Shown here one piece after another: positions 29,954 through 57,280 of a DNA stretch of 64,000 nt (the first letter of the stretch is position 1; every line of letters begins with the position of its first letter). The stretch comes from Bacillota bacterium (lineage in GTDB: Bacteria > Bacillota_I > Bacilli_A > RF39 > UBA660): contig SVAH01000007.1 in assembly GCA_015059485.1 (NCBI GenBank), positions 3,011 to 67,010 of the forward strand. Direction: 5' to 3'. A model generated the notes under the pieces. That model was not told where the DNA came from and did not search any database. It saw only the letters and a list, made by a program, of their open reading frames with translations. The position numbers and the translations under genes are program-made.

Positions 29954-31489
29954 ATGAAAAAAGGCAGAAATAAAAATTTACATATAGTTTTATTAATGAT
30001 AATTACAATTATATTTGTAGCGGCAGGATATTTAAAAGTATATTTTTCAAAAACAAATTTTGAAGAAATTATTTTTTATGTAAGAAGCGGGTTAGACAAT
30101 GGAGATATGAGTGTTTTTTGGTATGCTGTAAAAGTATGTTTACCATTCATAATAGTATTATTTACTATATTTTATAGTTTATTTTATGAAATACCATTTA
30201 AAAAAGAACAAACTATAATAATTAAAAATAAAAAAATATATCCTGTTAGATTTTTTAAAGAGCATGTAAAAGGTGCAACAATAACATTATTTGTTTTATC
30301 ATTATGTTCAATATCTTGGAGTGTTAATTTGTTAAATTATGTTATATATACTAATTTTCCATCTAATTTTATTGAAGAAAATTATGTTAATCCAAAAGAA
30401 ACAGAAATAAGATTTGATGAAAAAAGAAATTTAATAATGATATATGTCGAATCACTTGAAACATCTTTATTTACAAAAGAACAAGGTGGATACTGGAAAT
30501 ATGATGTAATACCAGAATTATATAAAATATATAAAGATGATGATACCGTAGTTTTTTATGATAAAGATATATCACAGACCTCAAATATGATACAAGGTTC
30601 ATCTTGGACAACGGCATCCTTAGTAGCCAATTCATCAGGTGTTCCATTTAAAATAAGAATTAATAAAAACGGGTATCATTCAAAAAATTTCTTAAATGGT
30701 AGTTATACATTAGGCGATTTACTTGAGGATAACGGTTATTATAATGAATTAATATCAGGTGCAACGACATCATTTGGTGGATTGAAAGAATTTTATAAAA
30801 GACATGGTAATTACAATATAATTGATAAAAATACACTTAAGAAATATGATTTAAAAATGAAAAAAGATGATAAAGGAAAATGGGGATTTAATGATAAATA
30901 TTTATTTGAAGTAGCAAAAAAGAGATTAGATGTAATATCTAAACAGGATGAACCATTTAATTTGAATTTGGTTTCTATAGATACTCACTTTGTAGATGGC
31001 TTTGTTGGAAATTATTCAGAAACAAAATATAAAGAACAGTATGAAAATGCATATGCAACAACATCAAGATTAATTTATGATTTTGTAGAGTGGGTAAAAA
31101 TGCAACCTTATTATGAAAATACAACCATTGTTATAATGGGAGATCATCTATCAATGCAAGATGAATTCTTCTTTAAACATAGAGTGAAGGATAGATATGT
31201 GTACAATTGCATAATAAATCCAAGAAATAATATTGGAAAACAAAAAAATAGAGTAATAACAGCACTTGATACATATCCAACTGTTGTTTCTGCAATTGGA
31301 GGAAATATTAAAGGCAATAAATTAGGTTTAGGAGTTAACTTATTCTCAAAAGAAAAAACACTTGCTGAAAAACTAGGGGTAAAAAAATTAGATAGAGAGT
31401 TAAGAAAAAAATCAAAATTTTATAATGATAACATATTAAATGATGAATATTTAAAAAAGTTTGAATTAGATAAGAAAGTAGGTAGTTAA
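29954..31489 (+). CDS. LtaS/sulfatase-family membrane transferase
   Basis: N-terminal TM bundle plus extracellular sulfatase-like domain (SSWTTAS, IMGDHL). Confidence 0.65.
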   Translation: MKKGRNKNLHIVLLMIITIIFVAAGYLKVYFSKTNFEEIIFYVRSGLDNGDMSVFWYAVKVCLPFIIVLFTIFYSLFYEIPFKKEQTIIIKNKKIYPVRFFKEHVKGATITLFVLSLCSISWSVNLLNYVIYTNFPSNFIEENYVNPKETEIRFDEKRNLIMIYVESLETSLFTKEQGGYWKYDVIPELYKIYKDDDTVVFYDKDISQTSNMIQGSSWTTASLVANSSGVPFKIRINKNGYHSKNFLNGSYTLGDLLEDNGYYNELISGATTSFGGLKEFYKRHGNYNIIDKNTLKKYDLKMKKDDKGKWGFNDKYLFEVAKKRLDVISKQDEPFNLNLVSIDTHFVDGFVGNYSETKYKEQYENAYATTSRLIYDFVEWVKMQPYYENTTIVIMGDHLSMQDEFFFKHRVKDRYVYNCIINPRNNIGKQKNRVITALDTYPTVVSAIGGNIKGNKLGLGVNLFSKEKTLAEKLGVKKLDRELRKKSKFYNDNILNDEYLKKFELDKKVGS

Positions 31490-31490
31490 A

Positions 31491-32117
31491 ATGTTTATAA
31501 TAAAAGTTCATAAATCAGTAATTGTAACATATTTAGGAGTTATATTTGCAAGTATAGCAATGTATTTTGCATTTACAAAAATGGCATTTTCAGAAATATC
31601 ATATTTAAGATATTCACTTATATTCTTAGTTTTATCTGGAATTTGTGATATGTTTGATGGTAAAGTTGCACGTATGTGTAAAAGAACAGAAGAAGAAAAA
31701 GAATTTGGAATACAAATTGATTCACTTGCAGATACAGTTAATTTTGTAGTACTTCCAGTTGTTATAATGTTATCACTTGGTATGAATACAATCTTAGATG
31801 TAGTAGCATATATGTTACTAATATTATGTGGAGTATCTAGACTTGGATATTTTAATGTTCATGCAAGTATGGATAATCCAGTAAAATTTTATAGTGGACT
31901 TCCCGTAACATCAACTGCAATAATATATCCACTTCTTGGATTACTGCATGGAAATATTTCTGAAAATCTATTTCAAAACATATATTTAGTAGCAACATTT
32001 TTAATAGCCTTCTTATTTGTAGCAAAAATAAAAGTTCCAAAATTAAAAGGACTTGCATATGTAATAGTCCCTATATTGGCTGCAATATTAGTGGTATTAT
32101 TATTGGTAATTAGATAA
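31491..32117 (+). CDS. pssA: CDP-alcohol phosphatidyltransferase (phosphatidylserine synthase-like)
   Basis: D(x)2DG(x)2AR...D(x)3D motif: CDMFDGKVAR...QIDSLADTV. Confidence 0.8.
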   Translation: MFIIKVHKSVIVTYLGVIFASIAMYFAFTKMAFSEISYLRYSLIFLVLSGICDMFDGKVARMCKRTEEEKEFGIQIDSLADTVNFVVLPVVIMLSLGMNTILDVVAYMLLILCGVSRLGYFNVHASMDNPVKFYSGLPVTSTAIIYPLLGLLHGNISENLFQNIYLVATFLIAFLFVAKIKVPKLKGLAYVIVPILAAILVVLLLVIR

Positions 32118-32938
32118 TGTATTATGATATAAAAAATGATAAAAAAATAATTATAAAAGAATCATCAGCACTAAAATTTTTATATAATACATTAATTGGA
32201 AGGCTACTATTAAAAATATTTACCACTAAGTTTGTTGCAAATACATATGCTAAATATATGAACTCTAAATTATCTAAAAGAAAAATAAATAAGTTTATTT
32301 TAAAAAATAATATAAATATGGATGATTATGAAGAGAAAGATTATACATCATTTAATGATTTTTTCATGAGAAATGTAAAAAGTGGTAAGAGAAAAATTGA
32401 AGATGGTCTTTTTGCTATTTGTGATAGTAAACTTAGTGTTTATAAAATAGATGAAAATTCTAAATTTAATATTAAGAATTCTATATATACGGTTGAAGAA
32501 TTAATTGATGAAAAAAGAGATTATAAATATGCATTAATATTTAGATTGTGCGTAGATGATTATCATCACTATATATTTCCAGATAGTGGAAAAGTAATAA
32601 ATAGTAAGTATATTAATGGTAAACTACATACTGTGCAACCTATTGCATTAAAAAAGTATAAAGTATTCCATGAAAATAGCAGACAAGTAACATTTTTAGA
32701 TTGCGATAATTTAGGAGATGTTTGTATAATTGAAGTTGGTGCATTGATTGTAGGTAAAATTGTTAATGAAGATGTTAAAAGTTTTAAAAGAGGCGATGAA
32801 AAAGGCCATTTTGAATTTGGAGGTTCTACAGTTATAATGCTTCTAAATAAAGATATAGAAATAAACGAAAAAATAATTGAAATGAGTAATAATGATATTG
32901 AAACAATAGTTAGGATGGGTCAAAATATAGGGAGGTGA
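32117..32938 (+). CDS. psd: Phosphatidylserine decarboxylase
   Basis: Self-cleavage motif FEFGGSTVIML; start overlaps the pssA stop. Confidence 0.8.
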   Translation: MYYDIKNDKKIIIKESSALKFLYNTLIGRLLLKIFTTKFVANTYAKYMNSKLSKRKINKFILKNNINMDDYEEKDYTSFNDFFMRNVKSGKRKIEDGLFAICDSKLSVYKIDENSKFNIKNSIYTVEELIDEKRDYKYALIFRLCVDDYHHYIFPDSGKVINSKYINGKLHTVQPIALKKYKVFHENSRQVTFLDCDNLGDVCIIEVGALIVGKIVNEDVKSFKRGDEKGHFEFGGSTVIMLLNKDIEINEKIIEMSNNDIETIVRMGQNIGR

Positions 32939-32963
32939 TATTATTAAAAGCTTTAAAAAATAT

Positions 32964-33974
32964 TTGCTAATGTTATTTTTTTTAATTTTAATAATATTCT
33001 TCACTTGCTACACCATATATGATAAAGAATCATTTTTATTATTAAAAGAAAATATACGAGATATAAAGTATTATTATATAATAATATGTTTAGTTATAAT
33101 ATGTTTATACTTCTTACTGCAAGGTATTTATATGAAAAGCATACTTAATACTTTAAAACATAAAATATCGTTAAAAAAGGGAATATTTTATTCTATGCTA
33201 GAATTTTATTTTAGTGGTATAACACCTTCATCAACTGGTGGACAGCCAGTTCAATTATATTACATGACTAAAGATGATATACCTATTAGAAAAAGCTATA
33301 TAACCTTAATGCTTAATACAATTTATTTTAAAATAATAATACTAATAATGGGGATAGTAGCACTATTATTTAAAAGTGACATAATTTTTTCTAGTAGACA
33401 TATATATATTTTTTTCTTCATACTAGGCTTTGTAGTGGATCTTGCAATTGCACTTATTGCATTGCTTTTAGTGTTTAAGCAAAATTTGGTAAAAAGAATG
33501 TTAAATAAAATAGTAAAAATTGGTAAAAAAACAAAAATTTTTAGAAAAAAAGTAGAAAATTTAAAAGAAGATGAAATATTAAAATTATATAATAGTGAAA
33601 TTGATTATATTTTTTCACATAAAAAAACAGTAGTATTAAATTTTTTACTTACATTTGTTCAAAGGGTATTATTGTTTTCTATAGCGTATGTTATATATAG
33701 AGGATTAGGATTTAATACATATTCTTATTTTGATTTAGTAATGATTCAAGTTATAGTTCAAGTATCTATAGAGTCTTTTCCACTACCTGGTGGAGCCGGT
33801 TTATCAGAAGGATTATTACATAATATATTTGTAATGATATTTGCATCAAAACTTGCGGATGTTGGAATGCTTCTTATAAGAACTTTCTCATTCTATATAC
33901 CACTTATAGTTTGTGGTATTATTATACTAATATATAATATAATTATTAGTAATAAGAAAGAAAATGTAAAATAA
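32964..33974 (+). CDS. Flippase-like (MprF N-terminal-like, UPF0104) membrane protein
   Basis: Eight TM helices; PLPGGAGLSEG motif. Start uncertain: the frame is open upstream to the psd stop region. Confidence 0.5.
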   Translation: MLMLFFLILIIFFTCYTIYDKESFLLLKENIRDIKYYYIIICLVIICLYFLLQGIYMKSILNTLKHKISLKKGIFYSMLEFYFSGITPSSTGGQPVQLYYMTKDDIPIRKSYITLMLNTIYFKIIILIMGIVALLFKSDIIFSSRHIYIFFFILGFVVDLAIALIALLLVFKQNLVKRMLNKIVKIGKKTKIFRKKVENLKEDEILKLYNSEIDYIFSHKKTVVLNFLLTFVQRVLLFSIAYVIYRGLGFNTYSYFDLVMIQVIVQVSIESFPLPGGAGLSEGLLHNIFVMIFASKLADVGMLLIRTFSFYIPLIVCGIIILIYNIIISNKKENVK

Positions 33975-33975
33975 T

Positions 33976-34497
33976 ATGAATGTTATATTTTTAGATTTTG
34001 ATGGAGTATTATTTACTAGCCATAATAATACACAAGAGCAAATTGAAAAAAGAATATCCATTTTAGGTGATATATGCAAAGAATATAATTGTAAAGTTGT
34101 AATTGAATCATCGCATAAATATGATTTAGATGAATTTTTGAATACTAAAATAGAATGGTTAGAAAATATTTTTGAATTATTTGATAAGTATGGGATAGAT
34201 TGTATTGGTAAAACTCCTAGTGTTCAGAAAAGAATAGGATGTGCAATAATTGAAATCTGGAAAGAAGATGAGATTGAACTTTATTTGAATGAACATCCTG
34301 AAATAGAGCATTTTTGTATAATAGATGATGACGATTTAGGCCCTAATAATTCTGATTTAAATAAATTTAGAGATCATTTAGTACAAACGACTTTTTACTC
34401 AGATAATTATGAAGAAGAAGGACTGCTTGAAATTCATAAAAAACAAGTAGGAAAAGTATTAATGTTAGATAGAAAAAATAAAATATCAGTAAGATGA
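33976..34497 (+). CDS. HAD-like hypothetical protein
   Basis: N-terminal FLDFDGVL (DxDx motif I). Confidence 0.35.
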   Translation: MNVIFLDFDGVLFTSHNNTQEQIEKRISILGDICKEYNCKVVIESSHKYDLDEFLNTKIEWLENIFELFDKYGIDCIGKTPSVQKRIGCAIIEIWKEDEIELYLNEHPEIEHFCIIDDDDLGPNNSDLNKFRDHLVQTTFYSDNYEEEGLLEIHKKQVGKVLMLDRKNKISVR

Positions 34498-34596
34498 TAG
34501 TAAAAAAGAAATGTAAAGAATAGTAAAACACTATTCTTTTTTATTGATAAAATAAGATTTTTTAAGTTAAAATAAAGATAGAATAGGAGAATGACT

Positions 34597-35757
34597 ATGC
34601 GATATGGATATAAAAAAAGTTTTATAGTTATTAATTGCATATTAGTTATTTCATTAGTATTTTTATTATTAAATGTATTTATATTAAAGCAAGTTGAATT
34701 TTGGTTTTGCGGACTTGCAACATTAATTCCGTTTATTATAATTGCTTTAAGATATGGCTATGAATCTAGAAATAGAAGATTTACATATGAAACAATGTTT
34801 TATATTTTTAGTTTTACGATTGTATATTTGATTATTACTTATATGCTTGGTATATCTACTGGATTTAATTTAACTATTTATAGATTAAACTCAACAAATT
34901 TTTTAACAAACATTATACCTTATATATTTGTAATAATAAGTGGAGAATTATTAAGATATGAAATTGTAAGAAAATGTGATACATCACCACTTGCATACAT
35001 ACTTGTTACGTTAATATTAATAATAATAGATTGTACAATTTATTTAACTACTTTTGATTTATTAACAGGTGATGGTCAAATAAAGTATATATGTTATATA
35101 ATTTTACCTAGTATTTCTAAAAACTGTTTATTATTATATACAACTAGAATAGCGGGACCATATCCAAGTTTAATATATAGGACACTTACTGAATTAAAAA
35201 ATTTCATAATTCCAATTGTTCCCGATTTTGGAATGTATTTTGAAAGTGTAATTTTAACAATTATTCCAGGAATTATTGGATTTATGATTTATAGTAGTTT
35301 AAAGCAATATCAAAATAAAGAAGTAGAAGGTAAAACACTAAAACAAAGTAAATTTTATATTTATGCCTCAATTATAGTAATAATAGTTGCAGTAATATCA
35401 TTAGTTCTTTTATCGTGCTGCAGATTTAAATACGGGATGTTATCAATTGGCTCAGGATCAATGACTGGAACAATAAATAAAGGTGATGCTGTCATATATG
35501 AATCTTTAAATAAAAATAATGTACCTGAAAAAGGAAAAATAATAGTATTTAGAAAAGAAGAAAAAGTAATAGTTCATAGAATAATTAAAGTTGTAAAAGT
35601 AAGCAACACAGAGACTGTTTATTATACTAAGGGTGATGCAAATAAAACGGAAGATGGCTACCCAATACCTACAAAAGATATAATTGGAATTGTTAAAAAG
35701 AGAATAAAATATATTGGATATCCTTCAGTTTTTTTGTACGAAATGGCAAAAAAATAA
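34597..35757 (+). CDS. SipW-type (S26B) signal peptidase I fused to a ~270-aa polytopic N-terminal domain
   Basis: C-terminal GSGSMTGTINKGD (catalytic Ser), VHRII (His), TKGDAN. Preceded by about 8 TM helices. Confidence 0.65.
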   Translation: MRYGYKKSFIVINCILVISLVFLLLNVFILKQVEFWFCGLATLIPFIIIALRYGYESRNRRFTYETMFYIFSFTIVYLIITYMLGISTGFNLTIYRLNSTNFLTNIIPYIFVIISGELLRYEIVRKCDTSPLAYILVTLILIIIDCTIYLTTFDLLTGDGQIKYICYIILPSISKNCLLLYTTRIAGPYPSLIYRTLTELKNFIIPIVPDFGMYFESVILTIIPGIIGFMIYSSLKQYQNKEVEGKTLKQSKFYIYASIIVIIVAVISLVLLSCCRFKYGMLSIGSGSMTGTINKGDAVIYESLNKNNVPEKGKIIVFRKEEKVIVHRIIKVVKVSNTETVYYTKGDANKTEDGYPIPTKDIIGIVKKRIKYIGYPSVFLYEMAKK

Positions 35758-35830
35758 GAACAATACCATAAAAAATTAATTGTAAAGTGTAAAATGAAAT
35801 GGTATAATCTTTTTAGAATAGGTGATACAT

Positions 35831-36856
35831 ATGAGACTAAAACGAAAATATGGTGTTATATTTTATTCAATACCAACGTTAGTTTGTACAGTATTATTAA
35901 TACTTGAAATTAATTACGCAAATAATAAAGTTGATGTAGCTAGTGTTTCATATAATGAAAGTAGTGATATATCTTACAAAGTATATTTAAAAGAAAATAG
36001 TTATTATGAGACACCATATTTGGATGAAAAAAGTAGTTATATAGCAAGTTTAATAGATAATTTTACGATTGATTATAAGTATTTAAATACATTTAGCGCT
36101 GATATTGATTATACATTAAAATATGGTGTGACAGCAGATTTAGTAGTATTTGATTCAAGCAATGATAAAAAACCAATCTATACTAAAAAATATACATTAG
36201 CAGATGAGCAAGAAATAAAAGGATTTGGAAAAATGGCTAAAGCAGATTTGTTGAATCAGGTTATAAATTATGATGAATATAATGAAATTATTAATGAATT
36301 AAAAAGAGAAATAGTACCAAATGCAAACTTAAAGATTAACTTTAATACTAAATTTGTTGGTAAAAATAAAGCAATTGGCAAAGATATTATAAGTAATAAA
36401 ACAAGTACTTTAGATATACCTATATCTCAAAAAACAATTGATGCCAATCTTAAAAAGAATAATACATCCAGTAATCAAACAGTTACCAATAAAAAGAGTT
36501 TAAGCGTTCCATTAATTGCACTGTTAGTTGGAACTATATTACTATTATTACTGACATTAATATACTATGTATTATACATTATTAAAACAGCAGAAAAGAA
36601 AACTAAATATGAACAAAAGCTTAATAAAATATTAAGAGAATTTGATAGAGCTATAACCGAAGCAAAAGGAAAATTGAGGTTAGATCGAAATGCAAATACA
36701 ATAGAGATTAAAGATTTTATGGAATTACTAGATGTACATGATAATTTCAATATACCAATTATTTATTATCGTATCAGTAGTACGAAGAGTGTATTTATTG
36801 TAAAAAATGGAAATGATATTTACTATAATGTAATGAAAAGTGATGATTATGAATGA
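35831..36856 (+). CDS. Bitopic membrane protein of the kind found beside SipW peptidases (DUF5305-like)
   Basis: N-terminal TM, a ~220-aa exodomain, a second TM, a cytoplasmic tail. Family name is from memory. Confidence 0.35.
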   Translation: MRLKRKYGVIFYSIPTLVCTVLLILEINYANNKVDVASVSYNESSDISYKVYLKENSYYETPYLDEKSSYIASLIDNFTIDYKYLNTFSADIDYTLKYGVTADLVVFDSSNDKKPIYTKKYTLADEQEIKGFGKMAKADLLNQVINYDEYNEIINELKREIVPNANLKINFNTKFVGKNKAIGKDIISNKTSTLDIPISQKTIDANLKKNNTSSNQTVTNKKSLSVPLIALLVGTILLLLLTLIYYVLYIIKTAEKKTKYEQKLNKILREFDRAITEAKGKLRLDRNANTIEIKDFMELLDVHDNFNIPIIYYRISSTKSVFIVKNGNDIYYNVMKSDDYE

Positions 36857-36869
36857 TTGACAAATAGGA

Positions 36870-36897
36870 TGTAAACATTTTATAAAAAATGTTTACA
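36870..36897. promoter_or_regulatory. Perfect 12-bp-arm palindrome overlapping the -35 of the fibre-subunit promoter
   Basis: TGTAAACATTTT-ATAA-AAAATGTTTACA. TTTACA (36892..36897), 17-nt spacer, TATAAT (36915..36920). Confidence 0.4.
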
Positions 36898-36952
36898 ACA
36901 AAAAAATACTAAGTTATAATGAAATTAATAAAATAGAAAAGAGGTTTTTAAA

Positions 36953-37570
36953 ATGAAGGAAAGCAAAAAGTTTTTACAAGTATTTTCAGTATTAGCACTT
37001 GTAGTTGCTGTATTAGGTATTTCAGTAGGATTTGCAGCAATGTCTACACAATTAAATGTAACTGGACAAGTTAAAGTTGATCCAGCAAAATGGGATATTA
37101 AATTTACAAAATATGAATTTGATGATTATGGTACAGATGCTACAGCAACAACTAAAGCAGCAGAAGGTACTAATCCAGCAAAACCAATTATGAATGATAC
37201 AACATTTAGTGATTATGAAATTGTCCTTACAAAACCTGGTGATAAAGGATCATATACAGTTACTGTTACAAATGATGGAACTCTTGATGCACAATTATCT
37301 TCAGTTAGTTTAGGAAACAGTTTAACTTATACTGGAGAAGCTACTGATCCTGCAGTAAAAGCTAGTGATGAAGCAATCGTTGAAAATAATGTTACTTATA
37401 CTATTACATGGGCAGATGGTTCTGAGATAGCTTCTGGTAGTGAATTAGCTCATGGACAAAGTAAAGATTTAATTATTACTGCTGAATATCCATCTGCTAC
37501 AACTGAACTTCCAACTGCACCAGTTGTTATTACTGGAAGAAACTTAACATTGACATATACACAAAAATAA
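36953..37570 (+). CDS. Secreted TasA/BsaA-like candidate fibre subunit
   Basis: Signal anchor then AAMSTQLNVTGQVKV. Thr/Ala-rich beta-type protein. Monocistronic, with its own promoter and a strong terminator. Confidence 0.45.
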   Translation: MKESKKFLQVFSVLALVVAVLGISVGFAAMSTQLNVTGQVKVDPAKWDIKFTKYEFDDYGTDATATTKAAEGTNPAKPIMNDTTFSDYEIVLTKPGDKGSYTVTVTNDGTLDAQLSSVSLGNSLTYTGEATDPAVKASDEAIVENNVTYTITWADGSEIASGSELAHGQSKDLIITAEYPSATTELPTAPVVITGRNLTLTYTQK

Positions 37571-37582
37571 TACTGAAACTAA

Positions 37583-37610
37583 AAAAGATGTAAAAATGGC
37601 ATCTTTTTTT
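37583..37610 (+). terminator. Rho-independent terminator
   Basis: AAAAGATG..CATCTTTTTTT. Confidence 0.65.
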
Positions 37611-37662
37611 AATGCAATAAAATAAATCTTATAGTATAATTATATTAATAATAGGTGGTAAT

Positions 37663-39783
37663 ATGAGAACTTTTAGAAAAAAACATAAAAGCATTGACAT
37701 GTCAATAAATTTATTATTAAAGCTGGTTGTAATTTGTAGTATTGTTACGCTATTTATTACTGTTGGTTTTTCATCATTATCTACAAGCCTTTCCGTAAAT
37801 GGAAGTGCTAAATTTATGCCAGTTGGCATGATAAGAGTAATGTCAATAGAACAAAAATCATTAACAAATGTAGTTGAAGTTGAAAAAGGATATACTACAA
37901 ATTCTATAAATGTTATAATTGATTTTGAAAATCAAACTGGAGTAGCGGTATATGATGTAAATATTACTAATCTAGGTCAAACTCCTCAAACATTAACTCA
38001 AATAGTAGAAGATATTTATTCTAATGAAGATGTAGAATATGAATTAAATGGTCTTGCAATTGATGATGTTATAGAACCTGGTGAGTCAAAAAATTTTACT
38101 ATTACTTTTAAATATAAAGAAGGTGTAGAAAATTCAGATGAAAGATTGAATGCAAAATTACAATTTGTTTTTGAAGAATATGTAGTTCCAACCACATTTC
38201 CAACTGTTTTTATTCAAAAAGGTGCATGTACATTTAATGGTTCAGATCAAAATATTTCTGGCGATGAATGTTCAAAATATACAAATAAAAAATATATAGA
38301 TACAGGAATTGCTTTATATAGCAATGAAAATTGGAAAAAAGATTACGAAATTGGATTTACTATTGATGAATTTACTTATGCTGGACAAGAAAATCAAGCT
38401 GTATTTGTAAATACTAAACTTGAAGAACAATCTAAATCTTGGCCGGGGTTAGTATTTAGACGAGGCGGAAATAATAATTCTTTAGAATTAACTCAATATA
38501 TTAATAAAGTGAAGAAAGCACAACTATTTTCTTCTAATTCAATGCCAATGACTGTAAGAATTAGAAGAAAAGATGGAGTAATATATTATTCAATAAATGA
38601 TGCAGGATTTATTGCTTTGCAAGATATGAATAATTTTAATCAACAATTTGATGTAACAACGTGGTTTGGTGCAGCTCCTAATAATTCAGGAGTTCCAATG
38701 AGATATTTGAAGGCAACAATGTCAAATATGTATGTAAAACTTGGCAAGATAGAGTCTAATTATTATACCATTGCATTTGACGCAAATGGTGGCAGTGTAA
38801 ATGAAAGTACAAGACGAGTAATTGAGGGTAGTGCTATTGGAGCACTTCCAACACCAACATCTGATATTTATGGTAAATTTATGGGGTGGTATTTAGATTC
38901 AGAGTGTACCAAAGCAGTAGATGAAAATACAATAGTTACTAACAATATGACTTTATATGCTAAATGGGATAGTACAATAGTTGCTGAAATAAATGGAGTT
39001 TTTTATAATTCTATTGAAGATGCAATTGCGAGTGTGCCAAAAACTGGAGAAGAAACAACTATAATTGTCAAAAATGATATATCTAGTAATATAAGTATAG
39101 ATGTAAATCAAAATGTAGTATTTGATTTACAAGGACATACTTTTTCAAACGTAAGCGCTGATGCATCTATAACTAATTCAGGCACTTTGAAAATTACAAG
39201 TGGAACAGTAAAATCTAATTCTGCCAATACAGCAACAATAAATAATAATGACAGTGGAGTTTTAATAATAGATGGATGTATGATAACATCATCTGGAAAT
39301 AAACAAGCTCTATATAATAATGGTGGAGTTTTAACTATTGCTGGAGATTCATATATTAAAAATACATCAAATATAAGGTCAGCAGTTCATAATTTGAATA
39401 AAGGAACTCTTACAATAACTGAAGGAACAATTATTTCCACTAATCATGCAGGTGTAAATAATGAATCTGGGACACTTGTTATTGGAGCAAAAGATGGTAA
39501 TATAAGTACAACTAGTCCTAATATTCAAGGAAAAACATATGGCATTACAGCTAATTCAAATTATTCTATTTATGATGGAATAATAAAAGGTCAAAATGCT
39601 GCTGTAAATAATCAATCAAAAATAGTAGAAATAGAAGATAATAGTGAGATTACATCAGGAAGTGAAATAATAGAAAATAAAAATTATAAAACTTTATATT
39701 TAAATTTATTAGCACCGCAATTAAATGGCGAAAATACTACTAATAATACAAATAATTTAGATAATGAAAATAGTGGAGAATAG
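37663..39783 (+). CDS. Large surface protein: TasA-like N-terminus, Listeria-Bacteroides (flg_new) repeat, beta-helix repeats
   Basis: N-terminus SSLSTSLSVNGSAKF parallels 36953. YTIAFDANGGSV...GKFMGWYLD repeat. C-terminal periodic G(T/S)L.I repeats. Confidence 0.5.
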   Translation: MRTFRKKHKSIDMSINLLLKLVVICSIVTLFITVGFSSLSTSLSVNGSAKFMPVGMIRVMSIEQKSLTNVVEVEKGYTTNSINVIIDFENQTGVAVYDVNITNLGQTPQTLTQIVEDIYSNEDVEYELNGLAIDDVIEPGESKNFTITFKYKEGVENSDERLNAKLQFVFEEYVVPTTFPTVFIQKGACTFNGSDQNISGDECSKYTNKKYIDTGIALYSNENWKKDYEIGFTIDEFTYAGQENQAVFVNTKLEEQSKSWPGLVFRRGGNNNSLELTQYINKVKKAQLFSSNSMPMTVRIRRKDGVIYYSINDAGFIALQDMNNFNQQFDVTTWFGAAPNNSGVPMRYLKATMSNMYVKLGKIESNYYTIAFDANGGSVNESTRRVIEGSAIGALPTPTSDIYGKFMGWYLDSECTKAVDENTIVTNNMTLYAKWDSTIVAEINGVFYNSIEDAIASVPKTGEETTIIVKNDISSNISIDVNQNVVFDLQGHTFSNVSADASITNSGTLKITSGTVKSNSANTATINNNDSGVLIIDGCMITSSGNKQALYNNGGVLTIAGDSYIKNTSNIRSAVHNLNKGTLTITEGTIISTNHAGVNNESGTLVIGAKDGNISTTSPNIQGKTYGITANSNYSIYDGIIKGQNAAVNNQSKIVEIEDNSEITSGSEIIENKNYKTLYLNLLAPQLNGENTTNNTNNLDNENSGE

Positions 39784-39787
39784 AGTA

Positions 39788-40681
39788 ATGATAACTACAA
39801 AAGAAATAGATAGTTTTAATGAATATTTAAACTATGAACTTGATTATTCTATTCTTACTATTAAAGGTTATAATGATGAAATCACCAAATTTTTAAATTA
39901 TTGTAAGGAACATAAGATAGATTATAAAAAAATAAGTAATGATAATATAAGAAAATATTTAAAGTATTTAGATAATTTAAAATATAGTAAAAGTAGTATA
40001 AGTAGAAATTTAAGTTCAATTAGAACATATTACAAATACTTATTAGATAAAAAGATAGTAGATAATAATCCTTTTAAAAGTATTTCTAATCCTAAAAAAG
40101 ATAAAAAATTACCTAATTTTTTAAACTATGAAGAAATAATGAAAATATTTGATTCTATTGATGAAGAAAAAATTTTGGGAAAAAGAGATAGGTGTATAGT
40201 GGAGGTATTATATGATACAGGAGTGCGTGTATCAGAGCTTGTGAATATTAAGATAAAAGATATTGATTTTAACGAGAAAACTATAAGTATATTTGGTAAA
40301 GGAAGAAAAGAAAGAATAGTATATTTTGGAGATTATTTATATGATGTATTAAATGATTATATAAATAATTGTAGAAAAATATTACTTTCTAATAAATCAT
40401 GTGAATATTTAATTCTTAATAGTAAAGGATCACAGATTACAACACGAGGAGTTGAAAAAATAATTGATAAAGTGGTTAAGGATGCATCACTTAGACATAA
40501 AATATCACCACATGTTTTAAGACATACATTTGCAACACATATGTTAAATGGTGGTTCTGATATTAAAACAATACAGCAACTTCTAGGTCATGAATCATTA
40601 TCTACAACTGGAATATATACTCACATATCAAATGATGTACTTAGAAGTGAATATTTAAAAAATCATCCAAGAAGTAGATGA
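39788..40681 (+). CDS. XerC/XerD-family tyrosine recombinase
   Basis: N-terminal SAM-like domain. HVLRHTFATHML and LLGHESLSTTGIYTH catalytic motifs. The track ORF start at 39764 overlaps the upstream gene. Confidence 0.85.
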   Translation: MITTKEIDSFNEYLNYELDYSILTIKGYNDEITKFLNYCKEHKIDYKKISNDNIRKYLKYLDNLKYSKSSISRNLSSIRTYYKYLLDKKIVDNNPFKSISNPKKDKKLPNFLNYEEIMKIFDSIDEEKILGKRDRCIVEVLYDTGVRVSELVNIKIKDIDFNEKTISIFGKGRKERIVYFGDYLYDVLNDYINNCRKILLSNKSCEYLILNSKGSQITTRGVEKIIDKVVKDASLRHKISPHVLRHTFATHMLNGGSDIKTIQQLLGHESLSTTGIYTHISNDVLRSEYLKNHPRSR

Positions 40682-40686
40682 TTTTT

Positions 40687-41382
40687 TTAATATTTATTAT
40701 TTTTTATAAACTCTTTAAGTATCTTAGTTAATGCTCTTTTTTCTATCCTTGATACATAACTTCTAGAAATTTTTAAAAGTTCTGCTATTTCTTTTTGAGT
40801 ATATTCTTTATTATTAAATAAGCCATATCTTTTAATAATTATTTCTTTTTCTCGTTTGTTTAATAAATTTAGATATCTATTTAATAATTCTATATTGTCT
40901 TTTGTATGTAAGACATCACTAATATCTGGACTAGTATCTTTTATAACGTCTATTAAGTTTATTTCATTTCCATCTTTATCATAACCAATTGAATCATTTA
41001 GACTAACATCATTTAAATGACGCTTATTACTTCTAAAAAACATCAAAATTTCGTTTTCCACGCAGCGAGCTGCATATGTCGTTATCTTAATTCCTTTGTT
41101 TTTATTATAAGAATCTATTCCTTTGATTAATCCAATGGTACCTATACTTATTAAATCGTCGGATTCAATATTTTTATTATCAAATTTCTTTACTATATGA
41201 GCAACTAATCTTAAATTATGTTCAATTAATTTACTTCTAGCCTTTTTATCCCCTTGTAACATTAAATCAATATATTTTTCCTCATCATCTTTGGATAGAG
41301 GTTGTAAAAAAACACTATTTGAATAACTACCTGTAAAGAAAATTAATCCTTTAAATAAACTAACTAATGGTAAAAACATCAT
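40687..41382 (-). CDS. sigK: Sporulation sigma factor SigK (with pro-sequence), uninterrupted
   Basis: LIEHNLRLVAHIVKKF and the pro-peptide junction SNSVFLQPLSKDDE match pro-SigK. Confidence 0.8.
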   Translation of the reverse strand: MMFLPLVSLFKGLIFFTGSYSNSVFLQPLSKDDEEKYIDLMLQGDKKARSKLIEHNLRLVAHIVKKFDNKNIESDDLISIGTIGLIKGIDSYNKNKGIKITTYAARCVENEILMFFRSNKRHLNDVSLNDSIGYDKDGNEINLIDVIKDTSPDISDVLHTKDNIELLNRYLNLLNKREKEIIIKRYGLFNNKEYTQKEIAELLKISRSYVSRIEKRALTKILKEFIKNNKY

Positions 41383-56803: not shown

Positions 56804-57280
56804 ATGAAAAAAATTATTTTTTTAATAGAAGTACTTTTAGTATTAACATTTACTAATTACTATGAAATAACTTTAAAAAAATCTTCTTTTGAAGAAACTT
56901 TTTATCATGATAAAATAGTTATTTCAAAAATAAATTTAGATAAAAATTTTTATTCTTATAATGAGACTAATGTTGATAATAATATAATTCTTTTAAAGGA
57001 AAGTAATATAAATAATTATTTTTTAATATTAGCTGCTCACTCAGGTTCATCTTCTATTTCGTATTTTAAAAATATTTATAAATTAAATAAAAATGATTTA
57101 GTAGAAATATATTTAAATAAAGAAAAAGTAGAGTATGTAGTTAAAGAAATAATATATATTAAAAAGAATGGAAAAATAAAAATATCTAAAAAGGAAAATA
57201 ATAATGTTTTGTATTTAACAACTTGTGACAAATTTAATCTAAAAAGACAATTATTAATAAAATGTGTCAAAAAAGTGTAA
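56804..57280 (+). CDS. Small sortase-like transpeptidase
   Basis: N-terminal TM. His in LILAAHSG, LTTCD cysteine motif, Arg in KRQLLIKC. Confidence 0.5.
   Translation: MKKIIFLIEVLLVLTFTNYYEITLKKSSFEETFYHDKIVISKINLDKNFYSYNETNVDNNIILLKESNINNYFLILAAHSGSSSISYFKNIYKLNKNDLVEIYLNKEKVEYVVKEIIYIKKNGKIKISKKENNNVLYLTTCDKFNLKRQLLIKCVKKV

Follow-up and report, generated by a model that had tools for sequence, protein, structure and literature searches.

Fibres of the TasA superfamily hold biofilms together in both bacteria and archaea. To our knowledge, the way in which their subunits leave the membrane ready for assembly is poorly understood. Here, we analyzed a window of 64,000 nucleotides from a Bacillota bacterium (RF39; UBA660; assembly GCA_015059485.1, contig SVAH01000007.1), in which four co-oriented genes on the + strand, at positions 34597-39783, encode a polytopic signal peptidase, a DUF5305 protein, a small secreted protein of 205 residues and a large secreted protein of 706 residues. 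Comparison with the closest described systems makes it probable that these genes form an export, processing and assembly cassette for an AbpX-like donor-strand fibre in walled, small-genome Bacilli of gut and rumen, with the N-terminal domain of the peptidase as a proposed dock and the 706-residue protein as a candidate for the fibre tip.

The closest described loci are those of AbpX, the fibre subunit of Pyrodictium abyssi, reported in a preprint of January 2026 (doi 10.64898/2026.01.04.697558). According to that work, mature AbpX starts with Q-W-S-E after a cleavage predicted behind 54 residues, and cryo-electron microscopy identifies W2-I12 as the donor strand. Most AbpX loci also contain minor subunits, tip proteins and a DUF5305 accessory protein, which has a beta-rich outside domain and is likened to a eukaryotic accessory subunit. 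The AbpX-linked type I signal peptidases (SPase I) of bacteria and archaea are described there as "structurally distinct, possessing ten transmembrane helices". In Haloarcula, the Tafi system comprises the dedicated peptidase TafD, the DUF5305 protein TafG, donor-strand subunits and an adhesin-like protein, and deletion of tafD blocks both subunit processing and fibre formation (PMC11821415).

The locus in the window shares with AbpX loci a homologous subunit, the register of leader, cut site and donor strand, a polytopic SPase I of ~380 residues, and the combination of DUF5305, minor subunits and tip proteins. The about-ten-helix SPase I beside an AbpX-family subunit is matched here by an enzyme of nine predicted helices, with the subunit encoded two genes downstream. 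In contrast to the AbpX loci, the window peptidase ends without a transmembrane segment, the residues linked to calcium binding (aromatic at +2, acidic at +4) are missing from the subunit, the large protein carries a Flg_new and a repeat domain, the host belongs to a host-associated Bacilli lineage, and neither an SLH or LPXTG anchor nor regulators are present in the locus. The same gene set as in the window is likewise found in Tafi of Haloarcula hispanica and in Tafi-like clusters of Thermococcales and Archaeoglobi (PMC11821415, PMC12337348), but TafD has four transmembrane helices and a C-terminal Ig-like domain where the window enzyme has an N-terminal eight-helix domain, and Tafi subunits are exported by the Tat route, whereas those of the window carry no twin-arginine motif. 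The system adds a new bacterial member to a type of locus that was described in 2025-2026. The possibility, raised in the original prediction, that the peptidase extension is a frequent and already described one turned out to be partly correct: it is conserved and already noted in print, but in one sentence only, in a preprint that assigns neither a fold nor a function to the extra helices and does not name the lineage of the window (doi 10.64898/2026.01.04.697558).

The peptidase gene (34597-35757, +) encodes 386 residues. Its reading frame is open from 34591; the start was placed at the ATG at 34597 because the database copy of the peptidase has 386 residues, and an AGGAG is located 6-7 nt upstream of this codon. 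The C-terminal part (35353-35757, +) consists of an anchor helix (residues 253-273) and an S26B signal peptidase domain (residues ~276-386). TIGR02228 (sigpep_I_arch) matches residues 256-383 with 84.5 bits against a cut-off of 51.85, indicating an S26B enzyme of the archaeal/eukaryal type, and Pfam Peptidase_S26 (PF10502) matches as well. In agreement with the original prediction of a C-terminal SipW-like domain with GSGSMTG, HRI and GDAN, the motifs GSGSM (S288), VHRI (H327) and GDAN...D (D347/D353) are all present. Ser288 and His327, the latter in place of the bacterial Lys, form the catalytic pair, and all four residues are invariant across 23 homologues. In Foldseek, the full-length model returned matches to the peptidase domain only, including human SEC11A/C (7p2p/7p2q, E 1e-5) and Streptococcus pyogenes SipA (4n31). 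Neither hydropathy nor the AlphaFold model predicts a C-terminal transmembrane segment. The same genome encodes a separate housekeeping LepB-type SPase I (167 residues, PF10502 135 bits), and the cassette enzyme is therefore a second, specialized peptidase, an AbpX/Tafi-type dedicated SPase I.

The N-terminal 252 residues (34597-35352, +), referred to here as the N-domain, had been described as a His-free polytopic domain that could not be assigned to a family. This description holds. The only His of the whole 386-residue peptidase is H327, and searches of residues 1-252 against Pfam, NCBIfam and PDB sequences, both with the single sequence and with 21 members, returned only noise even at E<=10. 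Hydropathy and two AlphaFold models place eight helices ahead of the anchor helix, at residues 7-30, 35-53, 63-88, 99-126, 131-148, 158-186, 189-204 and 213-243. Helix 189-204 is short and weakly hydrophobic; if it spans the membrane, the protein crosses it nine times in total. The full-length model has a predicted local distance difference test (pLDDT) score of 81 and a predicted template modelling score (pTM) of 0.69, with the linker below a pLDDT of 50, and the AlphaFold2 model of the N-domain alone reaches a pLDDT of 86 and a pTM of 0.83. Counting Lys and Arg in the loops (positive-inside) puts the N-terminus inside and the peptidase domain outside.

The GELLRYE motif singled out by the original prediction occupies residues 116-122, and its E117 and R120 are invariant in 21 N-domains, down to 23% identity; G85/G89/F90, P206/P209 and P224 are also among the invariant residues. 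Two conserved groups can be distinguished. The outer-face group comprises G85, G89 and F90 with P206, P209 and F211, and in both models the loops 89-98 and 205-212, which contain G89/F90 and P206/P209, pair as a small two-stranded sheet. By the positive-inside count, these loops lie on the outer face, beside the cleavage side of the peptidase. The inner-face group is made up of E56, R61, E117, R120 and K126. In addition, helix 5 has a conserved acidic residue, D145, and Asn176 shows almost no variation.

Homologues of the peptidase are numerous. A word-based search yielded 1325 of them, the best 100 being 384-391 residues long, and more than 1300 close homologues have lengths of 370-400 residues. 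When the N-domain alone was used as a HMMER query against 1.84 billion representatives, it was found in 487 clusters at 50% identity, almost always fused to a peptidase. Nearly all of the matches listed are 370-390 residues long, and the short ones were read as fragments because they end abruptly and carry no peptidase motif. As judged from these sequences, the fusion of N-domain and peptidase is real and conserved in the clade, and the eight-helix domain represents a well-defined family for which Pfam has no entry. Among 399 species sampled from the same class, it is present in 21 of the 49 species of the window's own family, and two further families carry it at full length. Named records include uncultured Bacilli, 'Tenericutes' and Erysipelotrichaceae metagenome-assembled genomes from rumen, reindeer, rabbit and Hadza gut, as well as 'Clostridium sp. 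CAG:1000' and 'Firmicutes bacterium CAG:582'. Two or three copies of the polytopic peptidase gene are found per ~1 Mb genome in ten relatives (G002, G010, G017, G021, G024, G315, G348, G392, G455 and G546), a notable investment for such reduced genomes. An AbpX-type system with a polytopic peptidase is therefore common in a large uncultured gut and rumen Bacilli lineage, being present in about 40-60% of the species sampled from one family and often in two or three copies. Peptidase-only matches from other phyla (Asgard archaea, Clostridia and a Pacebacteria metagenome-assembled genome) are ordinary enzymes of 150-330 residues with two transmembrane segments, so the eight-helix extension is not a general feature of S26B peptidases. 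One metagenomic protein, P0125 (812 residues), was considered as a fusion with DUF5305 and rejected; its peptidase is truncated after the GD motif and followed by a metallophosphatase/5'-nucleotidase, for which chimeric assembly or disruption of the gene is a more probable origin than natural fusion.

The extension also appears to reach into archaea. In P. abyssi, the gene after abpX encodes a 380-residue peptidase of the same layout. The catalytic domain of this protein can be aligned with residues 246-375 of the window enzyme (25% identity, E 7e-12), and the N-terminal region ahead of it is as long as in the window enzyme. A profile of 190 bacterial N-domains was compared with the archaeal peptidases. 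It matched a second Thermoprotei polytopic peptidase over nearly the whole domain with 13.1 bits (E 0.006, genome-sized database) and the P. abyssi enzyme weakly with 7.2 bits, the best of 400 composition-matched shuffles reaching 3.5 bits. Three motifs, GxxxGFxxN, ExxR and PxIP, occur in co-linear order in the bacterial N-domains and in both archaeal peptidases. On this sequence evidence, we take the bacterial and archaeal N-domains to be homologous, short of proof. Queried as a single sequence, the P. abyssi N-domain identified only one further clear polytopic peptidase among 200 genomes of the class to which P. abyssi belongs, and a search of the two archaeal genomes with the query A4 gave no matches.

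The second gene (35822-36856, +; 344 residues) probably starts at the ATG at 35831, behind an AGGTGA. Its product, described in the original prediction as a bitopic membrane protein, belongs to DUF5305 (PF17231; E 1.6e-12, 47.8 bits against a cut-off of 29), with transmembrane segments at residues 9-31 and 224-258, an outside domain between them and a cytoplasmic tail behind. In all ten relatives' loci inspected, a DUF5305 gene scoring above the Pfam cut-off lies directly downstream of the polytopic peptidase; the P. abyssi locus contains none. The relatives' loci further hold one to four small proteins of 180-230 residues (locus L046 of genome G014 has four paralogous small subunits) and, in most cases, one large protein of 505-2331 residues with the same N-terminal motif as the 706-residue protein in the same position. 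The pairing of the peptidase with DUF5305 invites comparison with the eukaryotic signal peptidase complex (SEC11A/C with SPCS1-3; 7p2p, 7p2q), which provides the closest solved fold of the catalytic domain and likewise combines a catalytic subunit with extra membrane helices and an accessory subunit with domains on both membrane sides. The window system differs from it in that the extra helices are fused to the enzyme, no similarity to SPCS1/2/3 was detected, and the substrates are probably a handful of fibre proteins.

The small subunit gene (36953-37570, +) encodes a 205-residue precursor with a signal anchor, a predicted cut after G26-F27-A28 and a donor-strand-like AMSTQLNVTGQVKV directly behind it. 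Compared with the AbpX structures, a profile of 25 such small proteins (A5) matches 9sj2_C with E 1.8e-4 and 9rhp_A with E 7e-4 over 128 columns, and it has no other match below E 0.5; with only the 21 closest sequences, the AbpX match drops to E 0.075. In Pfam, the protein shows only weak DUF11/CARDB-like similarity, and TasA/camelysin proper (PF12389) was rejected for it, there being no match at E<=10. By these sequence comparisons, the protein belongs to the AbpX branch of the TasA superfamily and is closer to AbpX than to TasA proper.

The region of the predicted cut can be aligned between systems. The 205-residue protein reads ...LGISVGFA / AMSTQLNVTGQVKV, the 706-residue protein ...LFITVGFS / SLSTSLSVNGSAKF (VGFS, then SLSTSLSVNG), and the P. 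abyssi AbpX precursor ...IGLTYA / QWSETLSLSATIS, in the same register as the window proteins. Both secreted proteins of the window thus share ...G-F-A/S followed by A/S-M/L-S-T..L.V.G, as the original prediction had pointed out, and in several genomes both the small and the large proteins show G-[FY]-A followed by x-hydrophobic-[ST]..L.I.G. The Ala at -1 (A28) is invariant in the 25 members of the subunit family, with one Asn as the sole other invariant residue. The small residues at -3 and -1 are compatible with a signal peptidase I site, and the alternating hydrophobic pattern right after it, kept in all family members, resembles a beta strand. Because of this conservation, a processing site common to both proteins is well supported at the sequence level, the cleavage itself being inferred. 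None of the NCBIfam families, including the SipW-cognate signal-peptide model, matched the subunit N-termini at E<=10.

Relative to tapA-sipW-tasA of Bacillus subtilis, the locus again has an S26B-type peptidase that is dedicated to a fibre subunit of the same superfamily, and the cut site has the same shape (aromatic -2, Ala -1, then the donor strand). In contrast, SipW has ~190 residues and two transmembrane segments, and a SipW orthologue was ruled out for the window enzyme, which has 386 residues and nine helices and scores 52.4 bits against the cut-off of 190 of the SipW equivalog (NF046067). TapA is absent, and a DUF5305 partner is present. The original reading of the region as a TasA-like locus is accordingly right at the level of the superfamily, but the subunit is nearest to AbpX. 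Taken as a whole, what the original prediction observed is confirmed, and its interpretation holds for the most part.

The large protein gene (37663-39783, +) encodes a signal anchor, an AbpX-like module (residues ~30-155), a region without assignment, a Flg_new repeat (residues 368-434) and a repeat-rich C-terminal third. The head of the protein (residues 1-233) aligned to the A5 profile with hhalign at a probability of 94.5% (E 7.8e-8), the module corresponding to about the first 155 residues. The Flg_new repeat, which had been noticed from the letters alone, is clear (E 3.2e-16), and the C-terminal third contains repeats such as N.GTL.I..G, which can be read as a beta-helix. The protein is a candidate tip adhesin that is headed by a subunit module.

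On this basis, we propose that the 205-residue major subunit and the 706-residue adhesin would be exported via their unusually conserved signal anchor and that the cassette S26B peptidase, not the LepB-type enzyme, would cut both proteins after G-F-A/S. The freed amphipathic N-terminal strand (A-M-S-T-Q-L-N-V-T-G...) would then insert into the groove of a neighbouring subunit, giving rise to a fibre of which the 706-residue protein would be an adhesive end subunit, probably at the tip. The peptidase is expected to act as a membrane complex in which the N-domain and the two transmembrane segments of DUF5305 take the place of the usual lone anchor helices. More specifically, the N-domain may serve as a non-catalytic dock that binds the signal-anchor helix sideways in the membrane and presents the GFA|A site to Ser288/His327 at the outer membrane face. 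We infer this docking because the anchor is unusually conserved and a conserved outer-face patch lies near the cleavage side. The cassette would probably provide these small-genome bacteria with adhesive fibres, and the role of the N-domain can be tested in a heterologous host, its catalytic partner and substrates being known.

Several points weigh against this interpretation. The AbpX match of the subunit profile is modest (E ~1e-4), and the AbpX hallmarks are absent: the mature N-terminus would be A-M-S-T, with Met rather than an aromatic residue at +2 and Thr rather than an acidic residue at +4. Across the family, +2 is M/L/F/I and +4 is T/Q/R/N, and the 706-residue protein has Leu at +2. 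It is therefore possible that the calcium-dependent mechanism of AbpX does not operate here. The locus contains no gene for a cell-wall anchor, and the 706-residue protein has neither an LPXTG motif nor a C-terminal transmembrane segment. As to the proposed docking by the N-domain, the relative placement of the two domains in the full-length model is uncertain. Furthermore, the invariant E117 and R120 are distant from the cleavage site, their predicted location being the cytoplasmic end of helix 4, and a simple dock does not explain them.

APH-1, a non-catalytic relative that scaffolds a membrane protease, shares the fold of Rce1 and the CPBP family, in which motif 1 is EExxxR. Against the PDB, the N-domain model gave no significant E-value in Foldseek (E about 1 against Rce1, 4cad). 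TM-scores above 0.4 were obtained only for three chains of the CAAX protease Rce1 (0.42-0.52, probability 0.21-0.75), and APH-1, the gamma-secretase scaffold, came next with 0.32-0.35. The N-domain and these proteins are eight-helix bundles of similar size with a conserved Glu/Arg pair on helix 4, but the N-domain has no sequence support for the relationship and lacks both motif His. Membership in CPBP (PF02517) was rejected: PF02517 is not matched even at E 10, comparison by hhalign with 14 CPBP proteins of related genomes gave a probability of 4.5%, and of the CPBP motifs only E117-x-x-R120 recalls motif 1, both His of FxxxH and HxxxN/D being missing. Because of the absent His and the negative profile comparison, the N-domain was not placed in this family, and the Rce1/APH-1 resemblance of the model is kept only as a weak lead without profile support. 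A more specific idea, which we consider possible but doubtful, is that the N-domain is a degenerate Rce1/CPBP/APH-1 fold that lost its catalytic His and became the scaffold of a prokaryotic signal peptidase complex (N-domain, S26B and DUF5305), gripping the substrate transmembrane helix as APH-1 does and thereby restricting cleavage to fibre subunits that bear the conserved anchor. If true, this would link two membrane protease families without known joint action and offer a simple bacterial model of substrate selection by signal peptidase complexes.

The same likeness could instead point to a second active enzyme in the N-domain, an intramembrane hydrolase derived from the CPBP/Rce1 fold, which would clear or trim the long, conserved signal anchor after the S26B cut, as a signal-peptide peptidase built into the protein, or would cut the substrate a second time. 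Rce1 4cad does give the best TM-score (0.47-0.52, probability 0.72-0.75), followed by APH-1, and the invariant Glu-x-x-Arg on helix 4, the conserved D145 and the nearly invariant Asn176 amount to more invariance than a passive scaffold usually has. A domain that is entirely His-free, with the motif 2 and 3 His gone and the family comparisons negative, makes such an activity quite unlikely. A different role could be played by the N-domain together with DUF5305, namely that of an assembly or anchoring platform holding the base of the growing fibre, or keeping a freshly cut subunit until its transfer to the fibre end, in the manner of TapA or of SipA, the inactive S. pyogenes peptidase that chaperones pilus assembly. 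The locus encodes neither an anchor protein nor an LPXTG motif or SLH domain, and the peptidase domain is similar to both SipA and SEC11. Some genomes contain two or three full cassettes, as is expected of fibre-specific machines, and DUF5305 is strictly linked and has a beta-rich outside domain (doi 10.64898/2026.01.04.697558). The catalytic residues are nevertheless all intact, so the peptidase is not a SipA-like pseudo-enzyme; the P. abyssi peptidase occurs without DUF5305, and recombinant AbpX is reported to self-assemble without a helper (doi 10.64898/2026.01.04.697558). We regard a platform role as unlikely on balance. Finally, there may be no fibre at all, the products being monomeric secreted or surface adhesins with a common leader that need a special peptidase because their anchors are poor LepB substrates. 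The missing aromatic +2 and acidic +4 and the merely weak DUF11/CARDB-like similarity in Pfam would agree with this. The subunit is, however, homologous to a protein with a solved fibre structure, the alternating hydrophobic pattern directly behind the cut site is conserved, several paralogous small proteins and one large protein per locus correspond to a pattern of major, minor and tip subunits, and the same gene set builds fibres in Haloarcula (PMC11821415). Monomeric adhesins are thus highly improbable, and the fibre cassette with a docking N-domain is the reading that we prefer.

The source assembly (1.4 Mb, 74% complete) encodes four more proteins of 219-596 residues with classic TasA/camelysin-type N-termini (...STYA/FFSA..., ...TSFA/YYRA...), at G000 C3:17658-18317 (+), C11:429-2219 (+), C19:33600-35378 (-) and C16:78857-79681 (-). 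PF12389 scored above its cut-off in two of the three that were scanned (the 219-residue protein and one of ~600 residues), and one of these two also has an FGE-sulfatase-like match. Only one S26B peptidase was found in this assembly, and the polytopic enzyme may therefore serve two classes of TasA-superfamily substrates. The genome also encodes penicillin-binding proteins and six sortases, from which it follows that the organism is walled. One sortase-domain open reading frame (179 residues) is located in the window at 56921-57241 (G000 C26:59931-60251), ~17 kb downstream of the cassette, and the five others lie elsewhere in the genome.

The locus DNA has a G+C content of 21-30%. A promoter-like TTGATA-18-TAAAAT precedes the peptidase gene (34544-34573, +; 10/12 matches). 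For the small subunit gene, a promoter and a terminator of its own had been predicted. A promoter-like TTTACA-17-TATAAT is present 33 nt upstream of the gene (36892-36920, +) and, with 11/12 matches, is the top site of a 5.7-kb region; such sites are weak evidence because they are equally frequent in shuffled sequence of this AT-rich DNA. Behind the gene, an 11-bp A/U hairpin with a U tract (37581-37609, +; dG -10.1, z -3.6) may act as a weak terminator, but it was not called by a consensus terminator scan. A palindrome of 12 bp without mismatches, GTAAACATTTTA/TAAAATGTTTAC, and with a loop of 4 nt (36870-36897, no strand assigned) overlaps the -35 hexamer of the subunit promoter. It folds with dG -10.7 (z -4.2), and 0 of 200 shuffles fold equally well. 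The palindrome may be the terminator of the peptidase-DUF5305 pair or an operator for a repressor of fibre expression. Together, the promoter-like site, the palindrome and the hairpin would fit a major subunit that is separately and strongly expressed, with some read-through.

Directly upstream of the cassette (29954-34497), there is a run of membrane-lipid and envelope genes, encoding an LtaS-like sulfatase-domain protein, a CDP-alcohol phosphatidyltransferase, a phosphatidylserine decarboxylase, an LPG_synthase_TM/flippase-like protein and a HAD_SAK_2 phosphatase-like protein. This neighbourhood is not kept in the relatives' loci inspected. On the other side, a gene for a XerC/XerD-like tyrosine recombinase (39764-40681; TIGR02224 330 bits, slightly below the cut-off of 335) overlaps the final 20 nt of the large protein gene. 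It is followed by the gene of a sigma-70-family factor on the opposite strand (40687-41382), and a similar sigma gene is found 3' of the large protein gene in a relative's locus (L047).

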